The notes under the pieces: model-generated
The model's database searches: none
Seen by the model: only the letters and a program-made list of their open reading frames with translations
Told to the model about the DNA's origin: nothing
Shown here: positions 21,466 through 62,490 of the stretch, in pieces
How positions within the stretch are numbered: the stretch's first letter is position 1
How the letters are laid out: each line of letters opens with the position of its first letter
Position numbers and translations under genes: made by a program
Source: Escherichia coli
GTDB lineage: Bacteria > Pseudomonadota > Gammaproteobacteria > Enterobacterales > Enterobacteriaceae
Length of the DNA stretch: 64,000 nucleotides
Strand: one strand, 5' to 3'
Assembly: GCF_022846255.1 (NCBI RefSeq)
Contig: NZ_AP025682.1

Positions 21466-21516
21466 ATTGGGGCCGTCCCCGGTGAAAAGAGGCGTTTGCA
21501 GGTCGTCCTGCAAAGC
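21466..21516 (-). promoter_or_regulatory. guanidine-II (mini-ykkC) riboswitch in the gdx leader
   Basis: Two hairpins with ACGR loops on the gdx-sense strand: TTTGCAGG-ACGA-CCTGCAAA and GGGG-ACGG-CCCC, just upstream of the gdx start. Confidence 0.65.
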
Positions 21517-35385: not shown

Positions 35386-35461
35386 GCCCGGATAGCTCAG
35401 TCGGTAGAGCAGGGGATTGAAAATCCCCGTGTCCTTGGTTCGATTCCGAGTCCGGGCACCA
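35386..35461 (+). tRNA. pheU: tRNA-Phe (anticodon GAA)
   Basis: GCCCGGATAGCTCAGTCGGTAGAGCAGGGGATTGAAAATCCCCGTGTCCTTGGTTCGATTCCGAGTCCGGGCACCA (76 nt); symbol by position downstream of yjdC. Confidence 0.92.
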
Positions 35462-35497: not shown

Positions 35498-35658
35498 TCG
35501 TTTCAGAACGCCACAATTTAAGCGTTCTACCTACAAATCAATTCTACCGAACTCAACCAGATTCCCCCCACATCAACCCCATTGTGTGGGTATAATTGCG
35601 GGTATACCCCAGTTCGACAGAATTTGTACCCTCTTTAACGCATTCAGAAGGCTGTACT

Positions 35659-36924
35659 ATGGCACTGACTGACGCAAAAATCCGGGCTGCAAAGCCCTCT
35701 GACAAGGCTTATAAACTCACTGACGGGGCCGGCATGTTCCTGCTGGTTCATCCTAATGGTTCCCGTTACTGGCGTCTCCGTTATCGTATTCTGGGTAAGG
35801 AGAAGACTCTGGCACTTGGTGTGTATCCAGAAGTTTCTCTCTCCGAAGCTCGTACAAAACGGGATGAGGCCCGAAAACTGATTTCAGAGGGGATTGACCC
35901 TTGCGAACAGAAAAGAGTTAAAAAAGTAGTCCCTGATTTACAGCTCTCTTTTGAACATATTGCACGACGCTGGCATGCCAGTAATAAACAATGGGCACAA
36001 TCACACAGCGATAAAGTACTCAAAAGCCTCGAGACACACGTTTTCCCCTTTATCGGCAACCGGGATATCACAACACTCAATACCCCGGACCTGCTTATTC
36101 CTGTTCGTGCTGCAGAAGCAAAACAAATTTATGAAATCGCCAGTCGTCTGCAGCAAAGAATATCTGCTGTAATGCGTTACGCCGTACAGTCTGGCATCAT
36201 CAGATATAACCCGGCTCTGGATATGGCTGGTGCATTGACCACGGTAAAAGGCCAGCATCGCCCCGCTCTGAATCTTTCACGCCTGCCTGAACTTCTGTCG
36301 CGTATTGACGGTTATAAAGGCCAGCCTGTCACCCGGCTTGCCGTTATGCTGAATTTACTGGTTTTTATTCGTTCCAGTGAACTCAGATATGCCCGCTGGT
36401 CTGAAATTGATATTGACAATGCCATGTGGACTATTCCAGCCGAACGCGAACCTCTGCCTGGCGTAAAATTCTCACACCGGGGCTCCAAGATGCGAACACC
36501 ACATCTTGTGCCACTCAGCAAACAGGCTGTAGCCATACTGACAGAACTTCAGACATGGGCTGGTGAAAATGGTCTGATCTTTACGGGAGCACATGACCCG
36601 CGTAAACCAATCAGTGAAAATACTGTAAATAAAGCCCTGAGGGTGATGGGATATGACACAACCCGGGAAGTCTGTGGCCATGGATTCCGGGCGATGGCAT
36701 GCAGTGCATTGATTGAATCAGGTTTGTGGTCCCGCGATGCAGTGGAACGTCAGATGAGTCATCAGGAGCGTAATGGTGTACGTGCTGCGTATATCCATAA
36801 AGCAGAACATCTGGAAGAACGTCGACTGATGCTACAGTGGTGGGCAGATTTTCTGGATGCAAACAGAGAAAGATTTATCAGTCCATTTGAATATGCAAAG
36901 ATTAATAACCCATTAAAACAGTAA
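35659..36924 (+). CDS. int: P4-type (tyrosine recombinase) integrase of the tRNA-Phe island
   Basis: ORF track 35596..36924; N-terminus MALTDAKIRAAKPSDKAYKLTDGAGMFLLVHPNGSRYWRLRYRILGKEKTLALGVYPEVSLSEAR typical of P4-like integrases; C-terminal catalytic region with HGFRAMACS...ERQMSHQ; starts ~200 bp after the tRNA 3' end. Confidence 0.85.
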   Translation: MALTDAKIRAAKPSDKAYKLTDGAGMFLLVHPNGSRYWRLRYRILGKEKTLALGVYPEVSLSEARTKRDEARKLISEGIDPCEQKRVKKVVPDLQLSFEHIARRWHASNKQWAQSHSDKVLKSLETHVFPFIGNRDITTLNTPDLLIPVRAAEAKQIYEIASRLQQRISAVMRYAVQSGIIRYNPALDMAGALTTVKGQHRPALNLSRLPELLSRIDGYKGQPVTRLAVMLNLLVFIRSSELRYARWSEIDIDNAMWTIPAEREPLPGVKFSHRGSKMRTPHLVPLSKQAVAILTELQTWAGENGLIFTGAHDPRKPISENTVNKALRVMGYDTTREVCGHGFRAMACSALIESGLWSRDAVERQMSHQERNGVRAAYIHKAEHLEERRLMLQWWADFLDANRERFISPFEYAKINNPLKQ

Positions 36925-37731: not shown

Positions 37732-38025
37732 ACCTTATCCTTATACTTGGTTATAATAAATGGCAAAACATATTTCTATAATACTGCTTCACCACAATAA
37801 ACACTGGCCCGCTATTTAAATACCCTGCAGGAAAACACGAATACATTAAGTCCCCCAACAGGACACATATAAATATTTAAATGCTTCCACCAGTGATATT
37901 TTAATGTACAGTCAACTACAACAGTAGCTGCCCGTTCATTAAACTTAACGTTCAATATATTTTCACAGATACTTAGCTACATATGTTCCATAACAGACGT
38001 CCACTTTTTGATGAAAAGGTGGACA

Positions 38026-38071
38026 CTGCATCACCAATACAAGTTTAACTGCATCACCAATACAAGTTTAA
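38026..38071. repeat. perfect tandem duplication of a 23-bp unit (CTGCATCACCAATACAAGTTTAA x2)
   Basis: Seen directly in the AT-rich spacer between the afaD-like and afaE-like genes. Confidence 0.8.
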
Positions 38072-38288
38072 TGGCTACATACGGCACTCAGTTTACACTT
38101 ACATTACATATGCATTTTAACACATCAACTATAACACCTTTATTTAAGTCTGTTGTGGACCATAGAATATGGTAAATTACAACAAGCAAAATAAAGTTAT
38201 ACATGCTTTTATAAAATAACATGCTATTTTAGAGGGCAGCCATTGACAACTGAATAGTTACTTTATTAGCATAAAGAAATTATGAATA

Positions 38289-38723: not shown

Positions 38724-41312
38724 TCACATACACACAGTGCGCACCAGAAAAATACCAGTTGCTTCTTTCTCCTCTGGAAGTCGATAATTTGCACGGCAAG
38801 AACTGTTACGCCCCCATTGAACCTTCAACTGTCCGGTTTCATCCAGTCCGCTCAAATACACCTCTCCATTATCCCCCACAACCCCTGCCCCACCAGGCAT
38901 TTGACCTTTCTTTCCTTCCTCTGTCACCACAGCTCCAAAAGGCAGGCGAGAGCCGTCACTACGTGACAGAGTTATCAGTGCTCTTCCCCCTACTCGAGTG
39001 ATAAACTTCGCCCGAACCACGGCTCCCTTTGTAGGAACAACACGAGTATCTGTCTGTGATACTTCCACATTTTCCGGGAAAGTTGTCGGATCCAGTGTAA
39101 TAAGATTTTCTTGGTATGGAGATACATGATTCACAAGAGTGTAACCTCTGGTATCGGTCCTAACGCCAGGCAAACTCCCAACTGAAGCGCCATTAACTCC
39201 AGGTGCTACAACCAGAGCAACCGTATCCTCTCCTTTCTGACCAAGAGTGATACCTTCATTGTGGAGCACCATACCTCCTGATATACCAGCACTCATCTGG
39301 CGAATATGACTGCTGTAACTGTACATCCCCGCCAACTCACCATAGGTACCAAACCACCTCAAATTCAGTCGGCTACTGTCTACATTATTTTCACTTCCGG
39401 GAGCTATCCGCTCACTCACATCCCAATACAACCTACGGTCAAATGCGCGACCATTCAAACCGGTTTCGTACCAAGTATTCTGCCCCGTAGTTCTTTGCGT
39501 TTGAGTTGTAACATTAATATCGTTATCTCTACCCCCAATCCACTGCCCCAGAGGAATATTCATCCACAGATTGATACTATCCTCTATATGCCCTCTCTGA
39601 TAATATGCATTTGTACTATAGTTACGTGACCAATTAACGTACCACGAAATATTCTTCCATGACGTTCCATATGACATGCCGAAAGAATCCTGCTTCTGTC
39701 GGTTATGACGGAACTCATCACGGCTACCGTAAAGGCTCATATACCCCAGAGATCCCAGAGACTGATTAAGGCGTAATGTTGTCCGGCGACTCCTGTCCCC
39801 ACTATAACTATATGCACGAAAGTTATCATTTCTAAATGTACTCAGCACATCGGACAATGTGTGGAAGCCTGAGGACGTATACTGATATCTCGCCGCTGTC
39901 AAATCTGTATTCGTAAGTTCAAATGACTTGTTGTAACGCAGACGCCATGTCTCTCCCGTCTCCGTATCCCGTCCCTTCTGCTGACCGCGGGAATGAATGC
40001 CGTCAACCGACACCGCCCCCAGTCTGCCCATTGACCATCCCAGCCCCAGAGCCGCTGACTGATAATGCGATGACATCTGTGCTCCCCCGAAGGCCGTCAG
40101 CCCCCATGGCAGACCATACATGACACTCATCTGCCCCAGCGGTGAATGCTCAACAGCATCATCTGAAGAACGGTACTCCCCCCCGGCAATGCTGTACTTC
40201 ATATATCCCTCACGAAGCGCAATGGCCGGTGTGGTGTAAGGCACCGTAAACACCTGAGCAGTACCATCAGATTCCTGTACCGTTACCTGAAGGTCTCCAC
40301 CTGACCCCGTCAGCGGCAGGTCCGTCAGGGCAAATGCGCCCGGGGCCACCGTCCGGCTGTCAATCAGATAACCATTCTGGCGCACCTCAATCCTGGCCTG
40401 GGTCCGGGCAATACCTCTGACCACCGGCGCAAATTCACGCTGGTTATAAGGCACCATGCTCTCATCTGACCCCAGCATCACCCCACGGAACGGCACACTG
40501 TCAAAAATGTCTGAAGGCGTGTAATCCTCACCCAGCGTCAGACGACTTCTGAGACTGTTAATCCCCCGCTCCGCACGAATATAGGCACTCTCCCACTGCC
40601 CCGGCTGACCGGATGACCTGTTCCAGGTTGTCAGGTTACGCACCCGCCAGGGACCAAGATTAATGCCCGGCTCAAGAGTGACCCAGTAATTGTCAGTAAC
40701 CGATTTCCCGTATCCACGATATTCTGAACGACTGGTATTTGCCTGCCAGTTCAGCAGAAAAGCAGGAATACCATCATCCCATAAGGCCTCCGGCGCTATC
40801 CCCCTCAGTGGCGGGCGCAGGGCCACCTGAGGAATACTCAGCAGCAACTGCTGTGACGCAAACTGGTATGTTTCCGTGGCCTGTGGAATAACGGATAACT
40901 CAGCACAGGCGTCAGCTTCCTTTCCGTCATCCCCGTGAAACAACTCCGGATATTCCTCCGTCATGACACCATAGCGGGCCAGCATTTCCCGGGTCAGACA
41001 GGTTTTCAGATAAGTCTTACCCTCCGCATCTTTCTCCGTACGGAACGCCATGTCCCGCGAATCCACCCGCGAACCGTTCAGGATAATATCAACCGGATAG
41101 ATACCGGGCAGTTGGGCACCTTCTTCAAACAACGTCAGGTCCACCCCCTTTCCGCCACCTTTAAGCATGGAAGCATCAAAGGAGTATGTGCGGGCCTCAG
41201 TATTCCCGGTGTAAAGAAGGGTACAGGCCGCCATCACAGAGAGAGCAACCGCTGTAATTTTTGTTTTTACGCAATATAAAGATAAACCTGAAGATGACTT
41301 ATTCCTGTGCAT
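38724..41312 (-). CDS. afaC: fimbrial outer-membrane usher protein
   Basis: 862-aa ORF with signal peptide and usher N-terminal signature (FDASMLKGGGKGVDLTLFEEGAQLPGIYPVDIILNG); symbol by synteny with afaD-like gene. Confidence 0.8.
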   Translation of the reverse strand: MHRNKSSSGLSLYCVKTKITAVALSVMAACTLLYTGNTEARTYSFDASMLKGGGKGVDLTLFEEGAQLPGIYPVDIILNGSRVDSRDMAFRTEKDAEGKTYLKTCLTREMLARYGVMTEEYPELFHGDDGKEADACAELSVIPQATETYQFASQQLLLSIPQVALRPPLRGIAPEALWDDGIPAFLLNWQANTSRSEYRGYGKSVTDNYWVTLEPGINLGPWRVRNLTTWNRSSGQPGQWESAYIRAERGINSLRSRLTLGEDYTPSDIFDSVPFRGVMLGSDESMVPYNQREFAPVVRGIARTQARIEVRQNGYLIDSRTVAPGAFALTDLPLTGSGGDLQVTVQESDGTAQVFTVPYTTPAIALREGYMKYSIAGGEYRSSDDAVEHSPLGQMSVMYGLPWGLTAFGGAQMSSHYQSAALGLGWSMGRLGAVSVDGIHSRGQQKGRDTETGETWRLRYNKSFELTNTDLTAARYQYTSSGFHTLSDVLSTFRNDNFRAYSYSGDRSRRTTLRLNQSLGSLGYMSLYGSRDEFRHNRQKQDSFGMSYGTSWKNISWYVNWSRNYSTNAYYQRGHIEDSINLWMNIPLGQWIGGRDNDINVTTQTQRTTGQNTWYETGLNGRAFDRRLYWDVSERIAPGSENNVDSSRLNLRWFGTYGELAGMYSYSSHIRQMSAGISGGMVLHNEGITLGQKGEDTVALVVAPGVNGASVGSLPGVRTDTRGYTLVNHVSPYQENLITLDPTTFPENVEVSQTDTRVVPTKGAVVRAKFITRVGGRALITLSRSDGSRLPFGAVVTEEGKKGQMPGGAGVVGDNGEVYLSGLDETGQLKVQWGRNSSCRANYRLPEEKEATGIFLVRTVCM

Positions 41313-41479
41313 TATTCACACCTGAGCCACGGTTTCTTTTTATTTACATATGCCGGAGGATATACACACGTATTTGTGCGTTTGCACGCCTATTCACACA
41401 CACTTATTTCACACACGCTCAGTATTCAACCGGGTTAATCAAATAAGCCCGCCGCTGACGTTAATATTTATTCCGGCTT

Positions 41480-42247
41480 TCAGCTTTTTAATTCCGATTC
41501 AAACGGCTTACTCTTTCCGCCGTAATCCGTAATCACTGTCCAGCTGACTTTTCCTGATGCACCAGAAGGAATTTCATATTCGTAAGAGGAGTACGGAGAA
41601 ATATAACGATGCTCCTTAACCTCTTTCCCACCAACGCTCAGCTCTGAAATATTAATATAAAATGGTGTCGGGTTATTCCCTTTCAGTTTATTACCTGATT
41701 TTGTCCACTCCACTTTTCCGCCTGCATCCTCCGGACGCCCTTTAACCGCAGGCGGACGAACAAACAGCTTCACACAACTGCTGACGGAAAGATTTACCTG
41801 CAGGGTTGCCTTGTCAGCTTTCTTTTTATCAGCACCTTTCTCTTCTGCCCATCGGTCATCATGCTTTGGCGGAATGCCTTTCACACAAAGCCACTGCAGA
41901 CTCTCACGGTCCTCAGGAAAAACACCCCCGGTACGGACAATTCGCAAACGGCTCGACTGAAGTGCATCCAGACGGAAAAGCGGCGGCGTCACCACAAAGG
42001 GGGCCGGGTCCTTCTGATTCTCTGCCAGCACCTCTGACTGAACCAGCATCGGATAATCCAGGTCATTCATTACCGTCAGTGAGGCCCCCGATGAATCCAG
42101 GTTGTAAAACACCCTTGTGGCCCCCAGATGCAGGGAAAAAACCTTTGACGTAGTCTTCGTGCTTTCCTGGTTTCCGGCTGCCATTACGCCGGAAGCCGGC
42201 AACCCCGCCAGTATGCCAACGAGCGCTGCAAGATGTCTGATTTTCAT
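41480..42247 (-). CDS. afaB: periplasmic pilus chaperone (PapD-like)
   Basis: 255-aa ORF with signal peptide and conserved chaperone core (PFVVTPPLFRLDALQSSRLRIV); symbol by synteny. Confidence 0.8.
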   Translation of the reverse strand: MKIRHLAALVGILAGLPASGVMAAGNQESTKTTSKVFSLHLGATRVFYNLDSSGASLTVMNDLDYPMLVQSEVLAENQKDPAPFVVTPPLFRLDALQSSRLRIVRTGGVFPEDRESLQWLCVKGIPPKHDDRWAEEKGADKKKADKATLQVNLSVSSCVKLFVRPPAVKGRPEDAGGKVEWTKSGNKLKGNNPTPFYINISELSVGGKEVKEHRYISPYSSYEYEIPSGASGKVSWTVITDYGGKSKPFESELKS

Positions 42248-55448: not shown

Positions 55449-55985
55449 TATTAGCTCCTTCTGATGCCATTCTATTTCAGGAAGGAGTGTCCGTTAAACT
55501 CAGGCTACCTCACAACAGGGGACAGACAACGCACGGGATAAAAGGGACGTTTTCGTCAGAATGTTGTTCTGCCGGCGCTGCATGTTCTCCCCGTATTCTG
55601 GCCAGTGTGATGCCAGTGTAAATTCATGTCAAAAAGTGTCAGCGAGAAAATTTACACCTGAAAAAGTCGGTCGTAAAACTGTTTCATGGCGAAACATCAG
55701 GAAGTATGTCAGAAATGTGATCGCTATTGTGGTTTTACGGAAGAGCATAAGGCAAAAAACGGCGGGAAATTCATTGACATTCACGGAGGATAAACAGCAC
55801 CATTTTATTATCCAGCAAGAAAACCGTAATCCCCCTCTGAATCCGGACAAGGTTCGTACTGGCAACATAACCTGAAATGGCACTAATGGCCAGAGCTTAC
55901 TAATACATAATCCCTACAGGATGTAGCCACCAGTTTTGTTCATCCGGTATTCTGATTTGGTAACATGCTCCAGAAAGGAAGAAAT

Positions 55986-57218
55986 ATGTACTGCAATGAA
56001 TTAAAAGAATTTGCGCAAGAGCAGGAACAAAAACTTATCAGTGCGCTTGCTGATACCAGAGAGCACCCGTCCCCCGATGGTGAAACAAGAAGCCGGGATA
56101 ATTATCAACGGGATTACGCGCGTATTCTGTATTCATCATCATTTCGCAGGTTGCAGGGAAAGATGCAACTTTTTGAAATTGATCCTGAAAAATTCAACAG
56201 AAACAGATTAACGCACAGTCTTGAGGTTGCTCAGATCGCCCGAAGTATCGCGTCAGACCTCAAACTGGTTAACCCGGTGGTGGTTGAACTGGCAGCTCTG
56301 GCGCATGACATCGGAAATCCTCCTTTCGGTCATTCCGGTGAAAAACTGCTTAATGAACTGTCTGAAGAAATCGGCGGCTATGAAGGTAATGCACAGGCGC
56401 TACGTATCCTGAGAAAACTGGAGAAGAAATTTTCATACTGCAACGGATTAAATCTGACTCACCGTAGTTTACTTTCGGTTGTTAAGTATCCCGCCCCTCG
56501 CACTGCAACTACTGCCGGCAAGTTCATTTATGATGATGACTTTGATTTTTATACTAACCTGCTTGCTGAAAATCAGCTCGATCTGAATCCCGGAGAGAAA
56601 ACGATTGATGCACAGATAATGGATCTCGCGGATGAGATTGCCTACGCTGCGCATGACCTGGAAGATGCCCTTAGCAGGAACATGGTCACGATTGAAGATA
56701 TTGAATATGAGTTTCAGATTTCTGACGAATTCCGGGGAGCGAGGGAACAGTTCAGGGAAATCGTTACTCAGTCGAGAAACACCGCTTTTCAGGCTAACTT
56801 ACTGAAAACCTCAGAAGAATTTGCCATCATATTCCGCAAGGAGTTAACTTCAAATATTGTCAATCGCCTCGTTGCTGATATTTCTGTAGTAACGAACCTG
56901 AATGGTTTTCAGGAACTGGGATTCGGGAAACTGAATGCGTTATCCGAAGGGCTCAAAAAACTTCTCTTTAAAGTCATCATGCGAAAACGTAATATCCTCA
57001 CCTATGAGTTCAGGGGAAATAAAATAATCAGGGATTTATATGACTTTTACAATGAAGGAGAGAATTATAAATTTCTGCCTCCTGAACTTAAATTCACCTT
57101 ACCCCAACCAGATTCCTGTATATTTGAAATCAGCAAAAAACGAGCAGTGGTTGACTATATTTCAGGTATGATGGATACATTTGCAGTCAAGGAATGGGAA
57201 ACTCACTGTCTGAAGTAA
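55986..57218 (+). CDS. Dgt-family HD-domain dNTP triphosphohydrolase-like protein (dGTPase-like)
   Basis: ORF track 55965..57218; HD motifs RLTHSLEVAQIARSIA and LAHDIGNPPFGHSGE plus EGNAQALRIL; RBS AAAGGAAG before ATG at 55986; AT-rich island gene. Confidence 0.8.
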   Translation: MYCNELKEFAQEQEQKLISALADTREHPSPDGETRSRDNYQRDYARILYSSSFRRLQGKMQLFEIDPEKFNRNRLTHSLEVAQIARSIASDLKLVNPVVVELAALAHDIGNPPFGHSGEKLLNELSEEIGGYEGNAQALRILRKLEKKFSYCNGLNLTHRSLLSVVKYPAPRTATTAGKFIYDDDFDFYTNLLAENQLDLNPGEKTIDAQIMDLADEIAYAAHDLEDALSRNMVTIEDIEYEFQISDEFRGAREQFREIVTQSRNTAFQANLLKTSEEFAIIFRKELTSNIVNRLVADISVVTNLNGFQELGFGKLNALSEGLKKLLFKVIMRKRNILTYEFRGNKIIRDLYDFYNEGENYKFLPPELKFTLPQPDSCIFEISKKRAVVDYISGMMDTFAVKEWETHCLK

Positions 57219-57317
57219 CACTGTCGATTACCAGAGGCGCATATTTTCCCGTTATGGTTATTGCGCCTTTATTCCGTTTCGGTGACAGGTTATTTTAAAT
57301 ATTCTGGAAATGCGTTG

Positions 57318-57887
57318 ATGGGCAAGAACAATTACCCTGAAAATAAATACAGGAAATGGTTTTCCACAGCAATAACATATCTTATTACAGGTGGTTTGTG
57401 CTGGTATATGTTGTGGGCATCCGCTATATCTCATTATACTGTTTTACAAAATACGGTACCTGAATGGACAACATATTTTTGCACCGGTATAATCACCGGA
57501 TCTCTTTCTTTTATTTATGCATTTTATATCCGCACCTTTAACAGAACATTAAAGTATTTATTAAATGCATTCACGGGGGGATTTTGTCTTGGATTTATAC
57601 TGAGTCTGAACTGTTACGATGTCTGTGTTTATCTTTTTCCGGATAAGGTTATTAGCTATGAATCTGAATATGATGTTGTTTTTCCGGGACCATCAAGAGG
57701 AAAGTATGGACATTGTGAAGCGGGACTCTGGTTGAAAGATCAAAACACTTCCAGATGGATACAACTTTGTACAAATAAAGAGTTCCTGCGCAGTCACCAT
57801 AAACAGGGGATGACAGGTGTATGGGTAACAGCTCGTGTTAATAAAATTGGGTCGTATATCGTGAAATATGAATTTATCTATATGTAG
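57318..57887 (+). CDS. hypothetical membrane protein (3 predicted TM helices plus ~90-aa soluble C-terminal domain)
   Basis: ORF track 57261..57887; hydrophobic segments ITYLITGGLCWYMLWASAI, GIITGSLSFIYAFYI, FTGGFCLGFILSLNCY; starts ~100 bp after the dGTPase-like gene on the same strand. Confidence 0.55.
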   Translation: MGKNNYPENKYRKWFSTAITYLITGGLCWYMLWASAISHYTVLQNTVPEWTTYFCTGIITGSLSFIYAFYIRTFNRTLKYLLNAFTGGFCLGFILSLNCYDVCVYLFPDKVISYESEYDVVFPGPSRGKYGHCEAGLWLKDQNTSRWIQLCTNKEFLRSHHKQGMTGVWVTARVNKIGSYIVKYEFIYM

Positions 57888-58303: not shown

Positions 58304-58738
58304 TTATTCATAATCAGGACCAGATGATACTTCCTGAGATATAAGAAAATCATCAAGAGAACCTCCGGCTTTTATAGCCTCTGCTATGGCCTTAGGCCGA
58401 CGTCCTTGTCCATTCCAGTACATTCTTTTACCGTTATCGTCATACTCGTATTTATGCCCTCCTGACACACTTTTTCTGCCTGCCTGTGACTTTTTGCCAA
58501 ATTCACGATAAAAATCTTCCAGAGATATACCATGTTCATCCATGAGTGATTTGATAGCTTTCATATTTTCCTTTCGCTCATTACGTTGCTGAATAGCTAT
58601 GTCAAAGTTTTCCTTAACCTTATTTAAATCTTCATCAGACATTTCTATAACCAGTTTTTTAACAAAGTCAATACTCAGAAGTAATGCCCGGTAAGTAATG
58701 AACTCTTCATTTTCAAAAGGAATTTTCTTCTTACTCAT
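58304..58738 (-). CDS. H-NS-family nucleoid-associated protein paralogue
   Basis: 144-aa ORF; C-terminal DNA-binding region GRKSVSGGHKYEYDDNGKRMYWNGQGRRPKAIAEAIKAGGSLDDFLI matches the H-NS motif (..Y.Y.DENG...TW.GQGR.P......GKSLDDFLI). Confidence 0.75.
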   Translation of the reverse strand: MSKKKIPFENEEFITYRALLLSIDFVKKLVIEMSDEDLNKVKENFDIAIQQRNERKENMKAIKSLMDEHGISLEDFYREFGKKSQAGRKSVSGGHKYEYDDNGKRMYWNGQGRRPKAIAEAIKAGGSLDDFLISQEVSSGPDYE

Positions 58739-59631
58739 TTATTAACACTCAGCTTTTCATTCATTTATGGCAAATCCTATCAGGTGATTCACCATAAAAA
58801 TAATATGTGTATCACATTTTTCGGTACTTAATCGTCACTTCCTTTCCGAAGGAAAGGCCATCGCAGAAAGTAAGAGAACGTTCTTTGTATTTGATACTTA
58901 GCGAAATTGCGCCGGTCACTACTTGTCTGAGTCCATTCACTTTCGTTAATGTTAATGAGAAAAACCCGCAGTATGATGCGTAATTTCATCAAACTGATGA
59001 AATTCGGTAGCAATCATATATCTGGTGTAGCCTGCATATTCGCAGGAACACGAATATCGATTATACTAATGGACTAACAATCTTCAGCCTCTTCAAGAAG
59101 ATGTTATAAATACACACAGATACTGATTCTCATCCCTTTCAGGCCTGGAACACTATTTCTGCTTTTTAGCATCATCTGGTAGCAATACTTTCCAGGTATG
59201 TCGCCCCATTTTTGTTCGTCTCCATTTTTTTAAGAAGTGCTCAAGTGAAAAACTTTTTACCTCTCCGGGAGTTGTCGTATTTGCTGATATTGTTCGTTTG
59301 TTTAAAGAACCTACTGGTCTTGCCATTAATATTACCTGCTGATTGCTTCACGCCCGGACTCCTCGCACTGTGCGCGGGTTATTGTTTCGTTTTCAGCCCC
59401 GGGGTCGCCAAGGCTCTGGATGGGGTACTACTTCCATTGACAGCATGAGGTAACAATACTGATGGTAACGCTGACCATTAACCGTAAACCACAGGGCATT
59501 TTCAGTAAATCACCGGCAACGCCGCTGCAGGATAAAACGAACACTGCACATAACGTGAAGGCCAGGGAACGGATACCACAGTTGAACGATAAACAGAGCC
59601 CTGCTCTGCTGAAAAAACACCGTGGCGGCAT

Positions 59632-59973
59632 ATGACAAAACGCCAGCGTAAAAACCGTGAGCGTATTAATCGTCTTGTGGAACACTGGCCTGAGTTATTC
59701 AACCGGGAAAAACCCCAACCGCTTAAAGTTGAGATATCTGACGACCTGATACAGGATATCGCCATCAGAGAACTGGCGTTTAGCGCAGGTGCATTACGCG
59801 CGGCAGTAGCGTCTTATGTGCAGTCTCCGCGCTATTACCGTGCGTTAATGGCAGGTGGCGCCCGTTACGACCTGAAGGGGCAACCGTGCGGGGAGGTGAC
59901 ACCACATGAACAGAAAGAGGCAGAGACCCGTTTAATGATGCTGAATGACCGACGAAAAGCCAGAAAGCGTTGA
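59632..59973 (+). CDS. ProQ/FinO-domain RNA-binding protein (small, island-encoded)
   Basis: 113-aa ORF; LRAAVASYVQSPRYYRALMAGGARYDLKGQPCGEVTPHEQKEAETR resembles the ProQ N-terminal domain ([39 protein letters not shown]) as I recall it. Confidence 0.65.
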   Translation: MTKRQRKNRERINRLVEHWPELFNREKPQPLKVEISDDLIQDIAIRELAFSAGALRAAVASYVQSPRYYRALMAGGARYDLKGQPCGEVTPHEQKEAETRLMMLNDRRKARKR

Positions 59974-59977
59974 TTCA

Positions 59978-60772
59978 CTAAGCTGTAATCAATGTACAGC
60001 GCTGTACCGGACGATGGGTAATGGCGGTCACAACCGGTAACCCCAGAGACAATGTGACTGTTTTTAACGCAACATACTGGCCGGATGTATCACCCCGGGC
60101 GACCTGAAAACACTTTTCCACCCGGCATTGTCCGCCAGCGCTTATCACCTGCCAGGTCTGTTGTAGTAAATCCACCAGTTGTGAACATTCTTCATCAACT
60201 GTCACACTGGCTCGCGGATGGCAAATGCTCGTCTGGCTGAGCAGCAACAGGCATCGCATTGTTGCTCCTCCATGTTGTTCCCGCAACCAGCGTAATACCA
60301 CCGGCGATGATGGACTGGCCGTGTGATTACGCTCAGTAATACGTTCGTGCACCTGTCGATAAAAGGAAGTACAGAATGCATAAATCTGTTGCCCGTTGAT
60401 ATTTCCTTCTGCCGAATGGAGTGTGAAGTGAAATGCCAGCAGATGTGGCCAGTGGTCCACCGCCTGCTGAATAAAACGCCGGATATCTCCCGGCTCTGAA
60501 AGTAAGGCTTCGGTTATTTGCACGGAATACGACTCCTTCAGACTCTGTTGAATTTTGTTAAGCCGGTGCAGACACACGGGAAAATACGCATCAACACCGG
60601 CACGATACGATACAAACACCAGTGACTGGTGATACGAATGGAATGACGAATACGTCAGAAAGGAATACCCCCCGCTGGCTGACAGGAGGGTATCAGCAGG
60701 AAGATGAACGGGAATGTCGCCAGCACCAGGGACAGGGCTGATTTCCACAATACCAGCGCCGGCATTTTGCAC
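59978..60772 (-). CDS. hypothetical protein (island cargo, downstream of AlpA-like gene)
   Basis: 264-aa ORF from the track; no family recognised; true start uncertain. Confidence 0.4.
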   Translation of the reverse strand: MQNAGAGIVEISPVPGAGDIPVHLPADTLLSASGGYSFLTYSSFHSYHQSLVFVSYRAGVDAYFPVCLHRLNKIQQSLKESYSVQITEALLSEPGDIRRFIQQAVDHWPHLLAFHFTLHSAEGNINGQQIYAFCTSFYRQVHERITERNHTASPSSPVVLRWLREQHGGATMRCLLLLSQTSICHPRASVTVDEECSQLVDLLQQTWQVISAGGQCRVEKCFQVARGDTSGQYVALKTVTLSLGLPVVTAITHRPVQRCTLITA

Positions 60773-60802
60773 ATCGCCAGCGTACCGGTATTACAACACG
60801 TT

Positions 60803-61132
60803 TCATGCAGCAGCTCCTCGTGACTCCTCGATTCGCTGCTGCATCCACTGCTCCACTTCGCTTTTGTACCAGCGGCTGCTGCGACCCAGTTTGATGGGTT
60901 TAGGAAAATGGCCTTCACTGATCAGCTTGTAAAACCATTTGTCAGTCATACCGGTGAAGCTGGTGATGTAGTTCATGTCGATCAGGGGATCGTCGGCACG
61001 CAGCAACACGCTGTCGTGGCTTATTGTTGTCAACATGGTCAGAATGTCCTCTGTGAGATTTATGAAGGTTGGGCAAATGCGGGTGAATCTGCTGAACGGA
61101 GTTTTCAGAGCTGGCCTGCTACGGGATACCAA
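60803..61132 (-). CDS. AlpA-family phage/island transcriptional regulator (HTH)
   Basis: Track ORF 109 aa; C-terminal part ITSFTGMTDKWFYKLISEGHFPKPIKLGRSSRWYKSEVEQWM matches the AlpA-type HTH; true start probably an internal Met. Confidence 0.65.
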   Translation of the reverse strand: MVSRSRPALKTPFSRFTRICPTFINLTEDILTMLTTISHDSVLLRADDPLIDMNYITSFTGMTDKWFYKLISEGHFPKPIKLGRSSRWYKSEVEQWMQQRIEESRGAAA

Positions 61133-61809
61133 GGATTACCAGCGAGGCAACGGGCTTCCGGATCGCACACTCCACGGCGATCGCGGGCGAAATCACTGAA
61201 CGCCCATATCAACTCTTTGAGGATGTCTTCGCAGTCCGGTGAACGACTGTCCAGCAGCACATCCCGGGTGATCTGCTTCTGGTACGGTGCCGCTTCATCC
61301 GGTGACGCGAAGCCCAGTACGTTGCTCCAGGCATCCAGAATCAACCGATCCAGTTCAGGGCCATCGAAATGCTCCTGTCTGACGCACAGCACCACGTGGT
61401 ATTCCGGCTTTTCCGGATGACGGGTCAGGAGCCAGCAAAGGTCGCGTCCGGGTTTCGCATTCATCAGCGCACTGACGGTTTCGATAAAATCCATACCAAA
61501 CCAGGTCGTTCTGCTGTTGAAGGTATTGTCATATTCACACGGTAGACGAAGCAGGATCCGCCGTACCCGGGAGCAGGACTGTTCACGCAGCGCACGCTCA
61601 AGAACGCCGATGACTTTGCTCTGATAAGATGGCCAGAAGGGGGCAAGGCTATCGTCGAAATAAGGAATAGCATTCATAAGATATGCTCCGTTATGCGCAG
61701 CCCACAACGCGTCCTGCCCGTGAATGAGCTGACGTGTTATGGCTTGCGGATGAGATTGATGGAATAAGTGAAGAACTGAAGCAGAACGGGAAGATAAGGG
61801 ACAGAACAC
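61105..61809 (-). CDS. hypothetical protein (island cargo)
   Basis: 234-aa ORF from the track, same strand and operon-like spacing with AlpA-like gene; no family recognised. Confidence 0.4.
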   Translation of the reverse strand: MFCPLSSRSASVLHLFHQSHPQAITRQLIHGQDALWAAHNGAYLMNAIPYFDDSLAPFWPSYQSKVIGVLERALREQSCSRVRRILLRLPCEYDNTFNSRTTWFGMDFIETVSALMNAKPGRDLCWLLTRHPEKPEYHVVLCVRQEHFDGPELDRLILDAWSNVLGFASPDEAAPYQKQITRDVLLDSRSPDCEDILKELIWAFSDFARDRRGVCDPEARCLAGNPWYPVAGQL

Positions 61810-61923
61810 CGGATACAGGTTCAGGATGAATGATCTCCGTTGACTTCAGTTCACATCATTAATCAATGCGGTAAGTTTTTACCGACGGAGTGTTTCCAGG
61901 AGCGGAGGCTCAGGCCTTAAGCT

Positions 61924-62490
61924 TCAGAAGTGAGGCTTACGAGGACGCCCTGCAGCAGGACGTTCAGGAACTTCATTGCAGCCGTAGGCACACAGCCCGT
62001 CTTTTTGCTCTTCTTTCGCCAGATAATGCAGGGCACCGCGAATATTATCGATGCTTTCAGGATCGTTGTGGCGCACAGGAATGTTGATGTTGTATGTATA
62101 ATGCGGCTGATATGTACAGCGGTGTGCCGAACCGCTGTTATGCGTAATAGACCGCCAGCATTCCGTAATCCGCTCCGCAAAGGGATATATTTTTTTAACC
62201 CTCTGACGATCGATCCAGAAAACCGCATGCGCATGAAAACCATGATCAACCGTCCATTCAATCACCCAGAAGAAGCCAACGATATTTTCAAATTGTTCCA
62301 CCTGCTCCAGCAGCATACGCAACTGCAATTCAAGCCAGCGATGATCAGGTTGTAAGAAATCAGGCGTATCTTTCCTGTAGAAGAAATCCATGCGTAAGGC
62401 CCGCAGGCAGGAATAGCGTGCCATCATTTGATTGATGTGATTGTCAAGTAAAGCGGTAAAAAACCAGTTTGGTGTGTAAGATTTAGGCAT
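61924..62490 (-). CDS. hypothetical protein (island cargo)
   Basis: 188-aa ORF from the track; no family recognised. Confidence 0.4.
   Translation of the reverse strand: MPKSYTPNWFFTALLDNHINQMMARYSCLRALRMDFFYRKDTPDFLQPDHRWLELQLRMLLEQVEQFENIVGFFWVIEWTVDHGFHAHAVFWIDRQRVKKIYPFAERITECWRSITHNSGSAHRCTYQPHYTYNINIPVRHNDPESIDNIRGALHYLAKEEQKDGLCAYGCNEVPERPAAGRPRKPHF

Follow-up and report, generated by a model that had tools for sequence, protein, structure and literature searches.

Three diverged YagK/YfjJ-type paralogues, one of them a putative HUH nuclease, encoded with alpA in a tRNA-Phe-linked island of Escherichia coli

Within a 64,000-nucleotide stretch of an Escherichia coli chromosome (RefSeq assembly GCF_022846255.1, contig NZ_AP025682.1; the whole stretch is referred to below as the window), positions 59978–62490 carry an alpA gene together with three genes, designated g1, g2 and g4, whose products had been described from the sequence alone (hereafter the original prediction) as proteins of no recognisable family. 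Comparison with their homologues indicates that g1, g2 and g4 are anciently diverged paralogues of the YagK/YfjJ superfamily (“inovirus Gp2-like”, probably with a Rep-type HUH fold). To judge from the aligned sequences, only g1 keeps the full set of HUH and Tyr-x-x-Lys residues, while g2 has one histidine and no tyrosine and g4 has no histidine. With moderate confidence, the block is read here as a common backbone module of CP4-57/P4-integrase-type genomic islands and not as a group of orphan genes, in which g1 may take part in DNA processing of the excised island and g2 and g4 may act as non-catalytic partners. The module was already partly annotated and the YagK/YfjJ family is known but uncharacterised; new here are the family assignment of g2, the set of one intact and two degenerate paralogues, and the corrected gene starts. 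The block is composed of the following genes and open reading frames (ORFs):

62490–61924, minus strand: g1, 188 amino acids (aa)
61677–61105, minus strand: g2, 190 aa
61036–60803, minus strand: alpA, 77 aa, ATG at 61036
60806–60693, minus strand: zinc-ribbon ORF, 37 aa, its ATG overlapping the alpA stop codon (ATGA)
60523–59978, minus strand: g4, 181 aa

Pfam analysis of g1 revealed matches to PF23343 (REP_ORF2-G2P; E 9.4e-5, 23.1 bits, gathering threshold 27.8) and PF11726 (YagK_YfjJ_C; E 7e-4, 20.0 bits, gathering threshold 25.8), and the protein also matched phrog_7120 at E 1.9e-10. Its homologues are spread through Enterobacterales at 39–60% identity, in clusters that carry both PF23343 and PF11726 and bear such names as “inovirus-type Gp2 protein”, “YagK/YfjJ domain-containing protein” and “rolling circle replication-associated protein”. 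RefSeq already names the g1 family (and sometimes g4) as inovirus Gp2-type, contrary to the unrecognised status given to g1 originally, and these matches place g1 in the RefSeq “inovirus-type Gp2”/YagK-YfjJ-like family. The HUH motif is present as H86-A-H88 on β-strand 84–94, and Y156-L-A-K159 is located at the end of helix 144–158, C-terminal to it. Rep-type HUH endonucleases have their motifs II and III in this order, an HUH strand followed by a Tyr helix. Across 46 g1-family and YfjJ-type sequences, residues E78, H88, W112, Y156, K159 and K163 are invariant and H86 is nearly so (at least 90%). The AlphaFold2 (AF2) model of g1 (predicted local distance difference test, pLDDT, 89.6; predicted template-modelling score, pTM, 0.85) has a compatible fold. 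g1 is the putative catalytic member of the trio, and its identification as a putative HUH nuclease is well supported by motifs.

A search for inovirus relatives of g1 (tblastn, 50,697 phage records) detected none, the sole match being an 82-kb Acinetobacter phage record. Two other readings of g1 were rejected: that of a small-plasmid Rep, since the plasmid matches listed are on replicons of 30–350 kb, and that of typical phage or satellite content, since just 2 loci of the family were found among 2.9 million viral contigs.

Direct scans of g2 and of g4 (Pfam even at E up to 10, NCBIfam, PHROGs and PADLOC) gave no match, and to this extent the original statement that no family could be assigned still stands for these two proteins; it was the analysis of their homologues that led to the YagK/YfjJ superfamily. 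An exhaustive phmmer search with g2 (1.84 billion representatives) recovered an Escherichia cluster, fragments, two distant full-length relatives, P0307 (34% identity, E 3e-14) and P0310 (E 9e-10), and one 1480-aa repeat protein. P0307 itself scores above the PF11726 gathering threshold (41.8 bits, compared to 25.8; E 1.4e-10), and the genes of P0307 and P0310 each sit between a g1/YfjJ-like gene and a PF27752 gene. By this evidence, g2 is a very diverged YagK/YfjJ-domain paralogue, nearly restricted to Escherichia. At the place of the HUH motif it has E92-Y93-H94, with a single His remaining, and its helix 149–163 contains F160 and F163 and no Tyr, a Phe standing at the position of the g1 Tyr. 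The AF2 model of g2 is fair (pLDDT 76.7, pTM 0.77). Its top Foldseek matches are HUH nucleases, namely the REP-associated tyrosine transposase (RAYT) 4er8, the origin-binding domain of adeno-associated virus (AAV) Rep, parvovirus NS1, IS200 TnpA and SIRV1 ORF119; all are weak (E 7e-3 or worse). The 1480-aa repeat protein (P0309) matches g2 residues 89–118 seven times (E 5e-10), which probably reflects a short shared helix motif.

The homologues of g4 all carry PF27752 (UCP030791), a recent Pfam family, and some are named “inovirus Gp2 family protein”; the assignment of g4 to PF27752 is based on this precomputed annotation of its homologues. The strand corresponding to the HUH motif reads T-M-R-C-L-L-L-L in g4 and contains no His. 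Q149-Y150 is followed by A-L-K154, with Y150 nearly invariant (at least 90%) and K154 invariant, and the equivalence of these residues to those of g1 is uncertain. g4 is accordingly classified, on the strength of its homologues, as a degenerate YagK/YfjJ paralogue in PF27752.

The three proteins were linked by iterated hidden Markov model (HMM) searches, with an inclusion threshold of 1e-5, of all ORFs from 22 fetched loci and the window region. Starting from g2, the search included P0307 and P0310, then a YfjJ-type 243-aa protein (7.9e-9) and a g4-like protein (8e-6), and in later iterations g4-like proteins of six genera followed by g4 of the window. Starting from g4, it included a YagK_YfjJ_C protein (3.6e-15), the 243-aa protein (1e-10) and P0307 (5.6e-7). 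Comparison by hhalign of the g1 family with the combined g2/g4/YfjJ alignment gave E 4e-4 over 165 collinear columns. Because of the P0307 bridge, the iterated searches, the names of PF27752 proteins and this hhalign result, g1, g2 and g4 were placed in a common superfamily. The alignment of g1, g2, g4 and YfjJ-type sequences is collinear, and the AF2 models of g1 and g2 share a single α/β domain with the order helix, strand, helix, strand, strand, helix, strand, helix. Pairwise BLASTP among g1, g2 and g4 gave a sole match, marginal and collinear, between g1 and g2 (E 0.027).

As originally predicted, the ORFs run in one direction with the AlpA ORF embedded among them, all on the minus strand. 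The maximal ORFs are located at 61924–62490 (188 aa), 61105–61809 (234 aa), 60803–61132 (the AlpA ORF, 109 aa) and 59978–60772 (264 aa). Of the three protein lengths taken from them, 188 aa holds for g1, whereas the 234- and 264-aa ORFs are first-start-after-stop maximal ORFs and not gene lengths (190 aa for g2, 181 aa for g4). The block was aligned with two diverged copies, from E. coli AREA_499 (L001) and an Enterobacteriaceae metagenome-assembled genome (L005). The 5′ extensions of the 234- and 264-aa ORFs are less conserved and contain a stop codon or frame-breaking indels in homologous copies. Ratios of nonsynonymous to synonymous substitution rates (dN/dS) in the extensions are 0.7–1.6, except for the g2 extension compared with L005 (0.17, from just 8 substitutions); in L001 the g2 extension (61678–61809) has a stop codon and a dN/dS of 1.56. 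RefSeq homologues of g2 and g4 are annotated at 191 and 182 codons and the alpA homologue at 234 nt, and ribosome-binding sites precede the g2 ATG at 61677 (GGAG) and the g4 GTG at 60523 (AAGGAG). From these indels and stops, dN/dS values, RefSeq lengths and ribosome-binding sites follow the corrected lengths of 188, 190, 77 and 181 aa. The fifth ORF of the block, a small CxxC...CxxC zinc ribbon, had been missed by the original prediction.

For the genes themselves, dN/dS against the two diverged copies is 0.07–0.19 (g1), 0.15–0.18 (g2), 0.02 (alpA) and 0.26–0.48 (g4). The 3.6-kb block is present at 80% coverage or more in 916 of 5426 complete E. coli genomes (best identity 92.8%). Given these low ratios and this distribution, g1, g2, g4 and alpA are real genes under purifying selection and not chance ORFs. 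A reading of the module as pseudogenes or junk was ruled out by dN/dS and synteny. None of the proteins is a housekeeping protein.

The alpA product is, by its domain match, an AlpA-family helix-turn-helix protein of the excision regulator/excisionase type, in agreement with the original prediction (PF05930, E 3.9e-10, 39.9 bits compared to a cut-off of 21; match to the excisionase/regulator family phrog_2790). The excision-control function also proposed for the cassette is plausible for AlpA, but not for the other three proteins.

The co-occurrence with alpA was examined by a synteny scan in which the g1 alignment was compared with one genome per species. This analysis revealed 18 loci, mostly in Enterobacterales (Citrobacter, Klebsiella, Atlantibacter, Kluyvera, Serratia, Salmonella, Mixta, Photorhabdus, Enterobacter and Buttiauxella), with one from a metagenome-assembled genome labelled Bacillota. 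In 16 of them alpA lies upstream of g1 at a distance of at most about 1 kb, the other two being cut by a contig end, and a g4-like gene is present downstream of g1 in seven. A gene of the YagK/YfjJ superfamily next to alpA was found in the window, in these 16 species loci, in CP4-57 of E. coli K-12 and on an E. coli plasmid, which carries AlpA, YfjI, a Gp2-like protein and a DEAD-box helicase. The alpA synteny of g1-type genes is conserved across Enterobacterales.

In other genera the usual order is (i) a YeeP-like GTPase gene on the opposite strand, alpA, a gene for a 197-aa protein and g1, followed by (ii) one to three DUF7828 + Zn_ribbon_11 genes, a g4-like gene and variable cargo. Several loci also contain an ORF of about 327 aa on the opposite strand between the YeeP-like gene and alpA, at the position of yfjH in CP4-57, the likeness being one of position only. 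The Escherichia type is rearranged (g1, g2, alpA, short zinc-ribbon ORF, g4). At least 10 loci encode a protein with an intact HUH motif and, after it, one or two degenerate paralogues, with triads in L002, L004 and L013. The protein of about 197 aa encoded between alpA and g1 in other genera (L014 5197–5790 and 11 other loci) has no Pfam match, and the Escherichia module has g2 instead. tblastn detected no remnant of this protein in the window, and no remnants of it or of the DUF7828 genes of other genera in the intergenic gaps.

The original placement of the cassette in a P4/CP4-57-like island was borne out by a tRNA-Phe gene with an adjoining P4-type integrase gene and by the parallel with alpA-yfjI-yfjJ in CP4-57 of K-12. 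In the mechanism that we propose for the backbone module, AlpA would promote excision of the island by the island integrase. g1, the sole paralogue with an intact His pair and Tyr, would then nick a specific single-stranded or extruded island site in a metal-dependent manner, forming a 5′-phosphotyrosine link. With helicase and polymerase supplied by the host or a helper, rolling-circle-type replication or strand transfer would begin from the nick. g2 and g4 would be catalytically dead paralogues that serve as DNA-binding, site-specificity, regulatory or assembly partners. A candidate cis site is a conserved two-hairpin block at 60550–60628, upstream of g4, which could equally be a promoter or 5′ untranslated region (UTR). 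In a more elaborate version, which we regard as unlikely, the trio would form a heteromeric machine (active g1 nickase with the pseudo-enzymes g2 and g4) acting at a hairpin-bearing island site such as 60550–60628 and starting rolling-circle replication or single-strand transfer of the AlpA-excised island. Such a machine, if real, would provide the CP4-57-type tRNA-linked islands, which are very common in Enterobacterales, with their missing replication/mobilisation function.

Several observations weigh against the backbone-module reading. Both Pfam scores of g1 itself are under the gathering thresholds. Direct hhalign comparison among the shallow g1, g2 and g4 alignments was not significant (E 0.1–0.4, effective number of sequences 1.2–2.5), and the linkage gained strength only once distant homologues had been added. 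Foldseek matches are weak (E above 1e-3, template-modelling scores 0.3–0.45), generic ferredoxin-like domains score as high as HUH nucleases in the structure search, and a PDB sequence search with both family profiles revealed no matching solved structure. Viral contigs hardly contain the family, and the plasmid matches listed do not show it as the only Rep of a small plasmid. The module of the window contains no helicase or primase gene, and a search of it for an origin or nick site detected no iterons and no repeated motif, only one long-range inverted repeat that is probably due to chance. Since the module lies 25 kb from the integrase in a mosaic island riddled with insertion sequences (ISs), it may have ceased to contribute to the movement of this island. 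No biochemical test of any family member, and no functional study of YfjJ or YagK, was found in the literature searched.

The main rival explanation, possible though doubtful in our view, is that g1, g2 and g4 are all domesticated regulators without catalytic activity, built on what was once an HUH fold, that bind DNA or RNA and, with AlpA and the H-NS-like and ProQ/FinO-like neighbours, control island expression, silencing or excision without cutting DNA. A regulatory role would suit the loss of the His pair in g2 and g4, a module with neither helicase/primase nor recognisable origin, the regulators encoded alongside (AlpA, an H-NS paralogue and a ProQ/FinO-domain protein), and the conserved structured non-coding block upstream of g4; moreover, one of the best structural matches is to the origin-binding domain of AAV Rep, which binds DNA sequence-specifically. 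The g1 family is harder to accommodate, as H86, H88, Y156 and K159 are invariant or nearly invariant across genera at 39–60% identity, which is difficult to explain without catalysis. It is this strict conservation of H-x-H and Y-x-x-K that disfavours the regulator explanation, and the ProQ and H-NS neighbours are, in addition, unlinked to the module in other genera.

It appears improbable that the cassette is an anti-phage, anti-mobile-element or satellite-type interference system, in which, for example, g2 and g4 might be sensors and g1 might nick phage DNA that enters single-stranded or is replicating. Gp2-like genes do lie at the edge of defence-rich cargo (abpAB after yfjJ in K-12, a dGTPase gene 3 kb away in the window, SIR2 and type I restriction-modification genes in E. 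coli EC2001), and a satellite of the PICMI type also protects its host from other phages, its alpA having been tested for excision only (PMC10803314). No PADLOC model matches g1, g2 or g4, however, which leaves the defence function suggested in the original prediction without a counterpart among known systems; AlpA alone gave a weak match to the candidate model PDC-M06B (E 4.6e-5). Since the genes are conserved core neighbours of alpA while the flanking cargo varies, backbone genes fit better than defence cargo. An origin from an integrated filamentous (inovirus) prophage, or from an IS200/IS605- or RAYT-type single-strand transposon, with no present function in the island, is very unlikely. 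It is suggested by the database name “inovirus Gp2”, the similarity to PF23343 and the g2 Foldseek results, in which a RAYT is the best match and IS200 TnpA is also listed. Against it stand the lack of an inovirus match to g1 in the 50,697 phage records and of inovirus genes nearby, the absence of flanking hairpin ends or REP-like repeats, and the purifying selection and alpA synteny seen across genera. The window proteins, at about 190 aa, are also shorter than gpII of the Ff phages, which has about 410 aa. The filamentous-prophage version was rejected, g1 having no inovirus match in those records and its neighbours being AlpA, ProQ, H-NS and IS elements.

The zinc-ribbon ORF contains the motif CAKC...CPWC and has no direct Pfam match. 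A local HMM (E 3e-11) ties it to proteins of 130–160 aa from other genera with PF25165 (DUF7828) and PF11682 (Zn_ribbon_11), which match it by tblastn at the C-terminal ribbon only (E 8e-4), the DUF7828 part being absent; in L001 it is frameshifted by a 26-nt deletion. In view of the match limited to the ribbon end and the frameshift, it is probably a truncated remnant of a DUF7828 + Zn_ribbon_11 gene.

Intergenic gaps of 246 nt (g1–g2), 68 nt (g2–alpA) and 169 nt (zinc-ribbon ORF–g4) separate the genes. Three non-coding stretches were analysed:

61678–61923, minus strand: g1–g2 intergenic region, 246 nt, of which 61678–61809 is the non-coding 5′ extension of the 234-aa ORF
60550–60628, minus strand: structured non-coding block between the zinc-ribbon ORF and g4, with hairpins CCAGT-CAC-ACTGG and GCCGGTG...CACCGGC
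62491–63730, no strand assigned: AT-rich stretch upstream of g1, about 1.2 kb, 31–39% GC, with no credible ORF (46 and 57 aa only)

The g1–g2 region is 88–89% identical, with indels, to L001 and L005, and its two halves gave DNA fold z-scores of -1.3 and -3.0. Comparison of the window, L001 and L005 shows higher conservation of the block at 60550–60628 than of the sequence on either side, and the motif of the block is single-copy in the window. Folding of 60550–60699 (150 nt) as DNA gave a z-score of -4.86, and none of 200 shuffled sequences folded as well. The block is a candidate promoter/operator, 5′ UTR or protein-binding site. A hairpin directly after the zinc-ribbon ORF is not conserved. 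In many genomes the AT-rich stretch accompanies the module, and more than 3900 E. coli genomes contain parts of it; it is unannotated in RefSeq copies. The g1 promoter, or a silenced regulatory region, presumably lies within it. A further hairpin (about 62529–62552; z -3.6) lies just upstream of g1. A weak psRNA2-like match (34 bits, compared to the 65 needed) was detected at 63568–63733 on the minus strand, just before a transposase gene starting at 63737. No Rfam families were found within the module, and a promoter scan gave fewer matches than shuffled sequence.

The window represents an Escherichia chromosome, with a core stretch 95–99% identical to nearly all complete E. coli genomes. Features of the island and of the neighbourhood of the module are as follows:

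35386–35461: tRNA-Phe gene, start of the island
35596–36924: P4-type integrase gene with Arm-DNA-bind_3, Phage_int_M and Phage_integrase domains
59632–59973, plus strand: ProQ/FinO-domain gene, 113 aa, FinO domain only (PF04352, E 1.9e-24), convergent to g4

Downstream of the integrase gene the island is a mosaic that includes a chaperone-usher adhesin operon with the AfaR small RNA (sRNA), IS630- and IS30-type transposase genes, and genes for a major facilitator superfamily transporter, an oxidoreductase, an anti-phage-type dGTPase, an H-NS paralogue and the ProQ/FinO-domain protein. The three-paralogue and alpA module is located about 25 kb inside the island, counted from the integrase. No attR copy of the tRNA-Phe 3′ end was found within the 64-kb window, so the island end lies beyond position 64000. 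The ProQ/FinO gene adjoins g4 in L001 and EC2001 (frameshifted in the latter) and is absent from L005, where homology stops after g4; the linkage of this neighbour to the module is confined to some copies. An overlapping 57-aa ORF precedes it (the pair spans 59462–59973 on the plus strand), and no partner antisense RNA was identified.

Other features were recorded in the window. The adhesin operon, of afa/dra type and situated just inside the island, comprises AfaR (270 bits; 37974–38230, plus strand) and adjoining chaperone-usher genes (38724–42247, minus strand) for a PapC-type usher of 862 aa and a PapD-type chaperone. The Hfq-binding sRNA isrC (44410–44532, minus strand; 135 bits, full length) lies near the IS630-type transposase genes. 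The dGTPase gene (55965–57218, plus strand) matches the PADLOC dGTPase model at E 1.3e-110 and NCBIfam antiphage_dGTPase at 286 bits, under its cut-off of 400. It is followed by a 208-aa ORF (57261–57887, plus strand) that looks hydrophobic and has no family match, and this pair also precedes the module in E. coli EC2001. The island-borne H-NS/StpA-like paralogue (144 aa) is encoded at 58304–58738 on the minus strand. A guanidine-II (mini-ykkC) riboswitch (21468–21514, minus strand) lies in the stretch holding sugE, as expected of the core genome. In E. coli AREA_499, a mobI(A/C) gene (L001 4052–4438) is present about 8 kb from the related module, a hint that some such islands may be mobilisable by IncA/C plasmids.

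Much of the cargo that serves virulence, defence and fitness in E. coli and its relatives is borne by CP4-57-type islands, whose persistence after excision and movement are poorly understood. A small protein with intact HUH and Tyr motifs is encoded beside alpA in many of them, and the hypothesis of one enzyme with pseudo-enzyme partners names H86, H88 and Y156 as its residues. Should g1 prove unable to cut DNA, a family and corrected starts are still gained for three “hypothetical proteins” found in about one-sixth of complete E. coli genomes.

Among known proteins, the Rep-type HUH endonucleases (AAV Rep, parvovirus NS1, SIRV1 ORF119, the Rep of circular Rep-encoding single-stranded DNA (CRESS) viruses and, remotely through PF23343, gpII) differ from those of the module in several respects: here a helicase domain is lacking, both within the proteins and next to them; generic ferredoxin-like folds score at least as well in structural comparison; and g2 and g4 are without the metal-binding histidines. 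The organisation of the module resembles AlpA-centred modules (P4 Vis, alpA of phage-inducible chromosomal islands (PICIs) and of PICMIs, and Pseudomonas transfer-messenger RNA (tmRNA) islands), in which an AlpA/Vis-type helix-turn-helix gene stands beside replication or DNA-processing genes in an integrase-bearing element that targets a tRNA or tmRNA gene. Unlike in these satellites, no primase (of P4 alpha or PICMI prim type), capsid-hijacking genes or pac/cos functions were seen here. PICMI satellites need AlpA, a protein similar to excisionases, in order to excise (PMC10803314). In Pseudomonas tmRNA islands moved by a jumbo phage, the likely core genes include alpA and a Gp2-like gene (10.1101/2024.08.29.610337), and YfjJ-like and Vis/AlpA genes appear together in the gene list of the Shigella SRL island (PMC6980539). 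DUF7828 + Zn_ribbon_11 genes precede the g4-like genes of other genera, whereas the ORF of the window has the ribbon end only.

The closest parallel is provided by YfjJ and YagK of the cryptic K-12 prophages CP4-57 and CP4-6 (PF11726; “inovirus Gp2 family protein” in NCBI). In CP4-57 the order is intA, yfjH, alpA, yfjI (DUF3987) and yfjJ, followed by the AbpAB defence genes. The window differs in having three tandem paralogues, as against one, two of which have no HUH histidines, in having no YfjI (DUF3987) partner, and in having alpA inside the cluster and not upstream of it. g2 and g4 join YfjJ/YagK by iterated profile search, and no protein of the window reaches the PF11726 gathering score directly. 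Shared features are a single domain of about 190–240 aa, a location in P4-integrase-type islands, just downstream of alpA in the case of YfjJ of CP4-57, and a collinear pattern consisting of a strand R-x-D-L-x-F/Y, W...H-x-H-V-x-L-L, a helix with W and a C-terminal Y-L-x-K.

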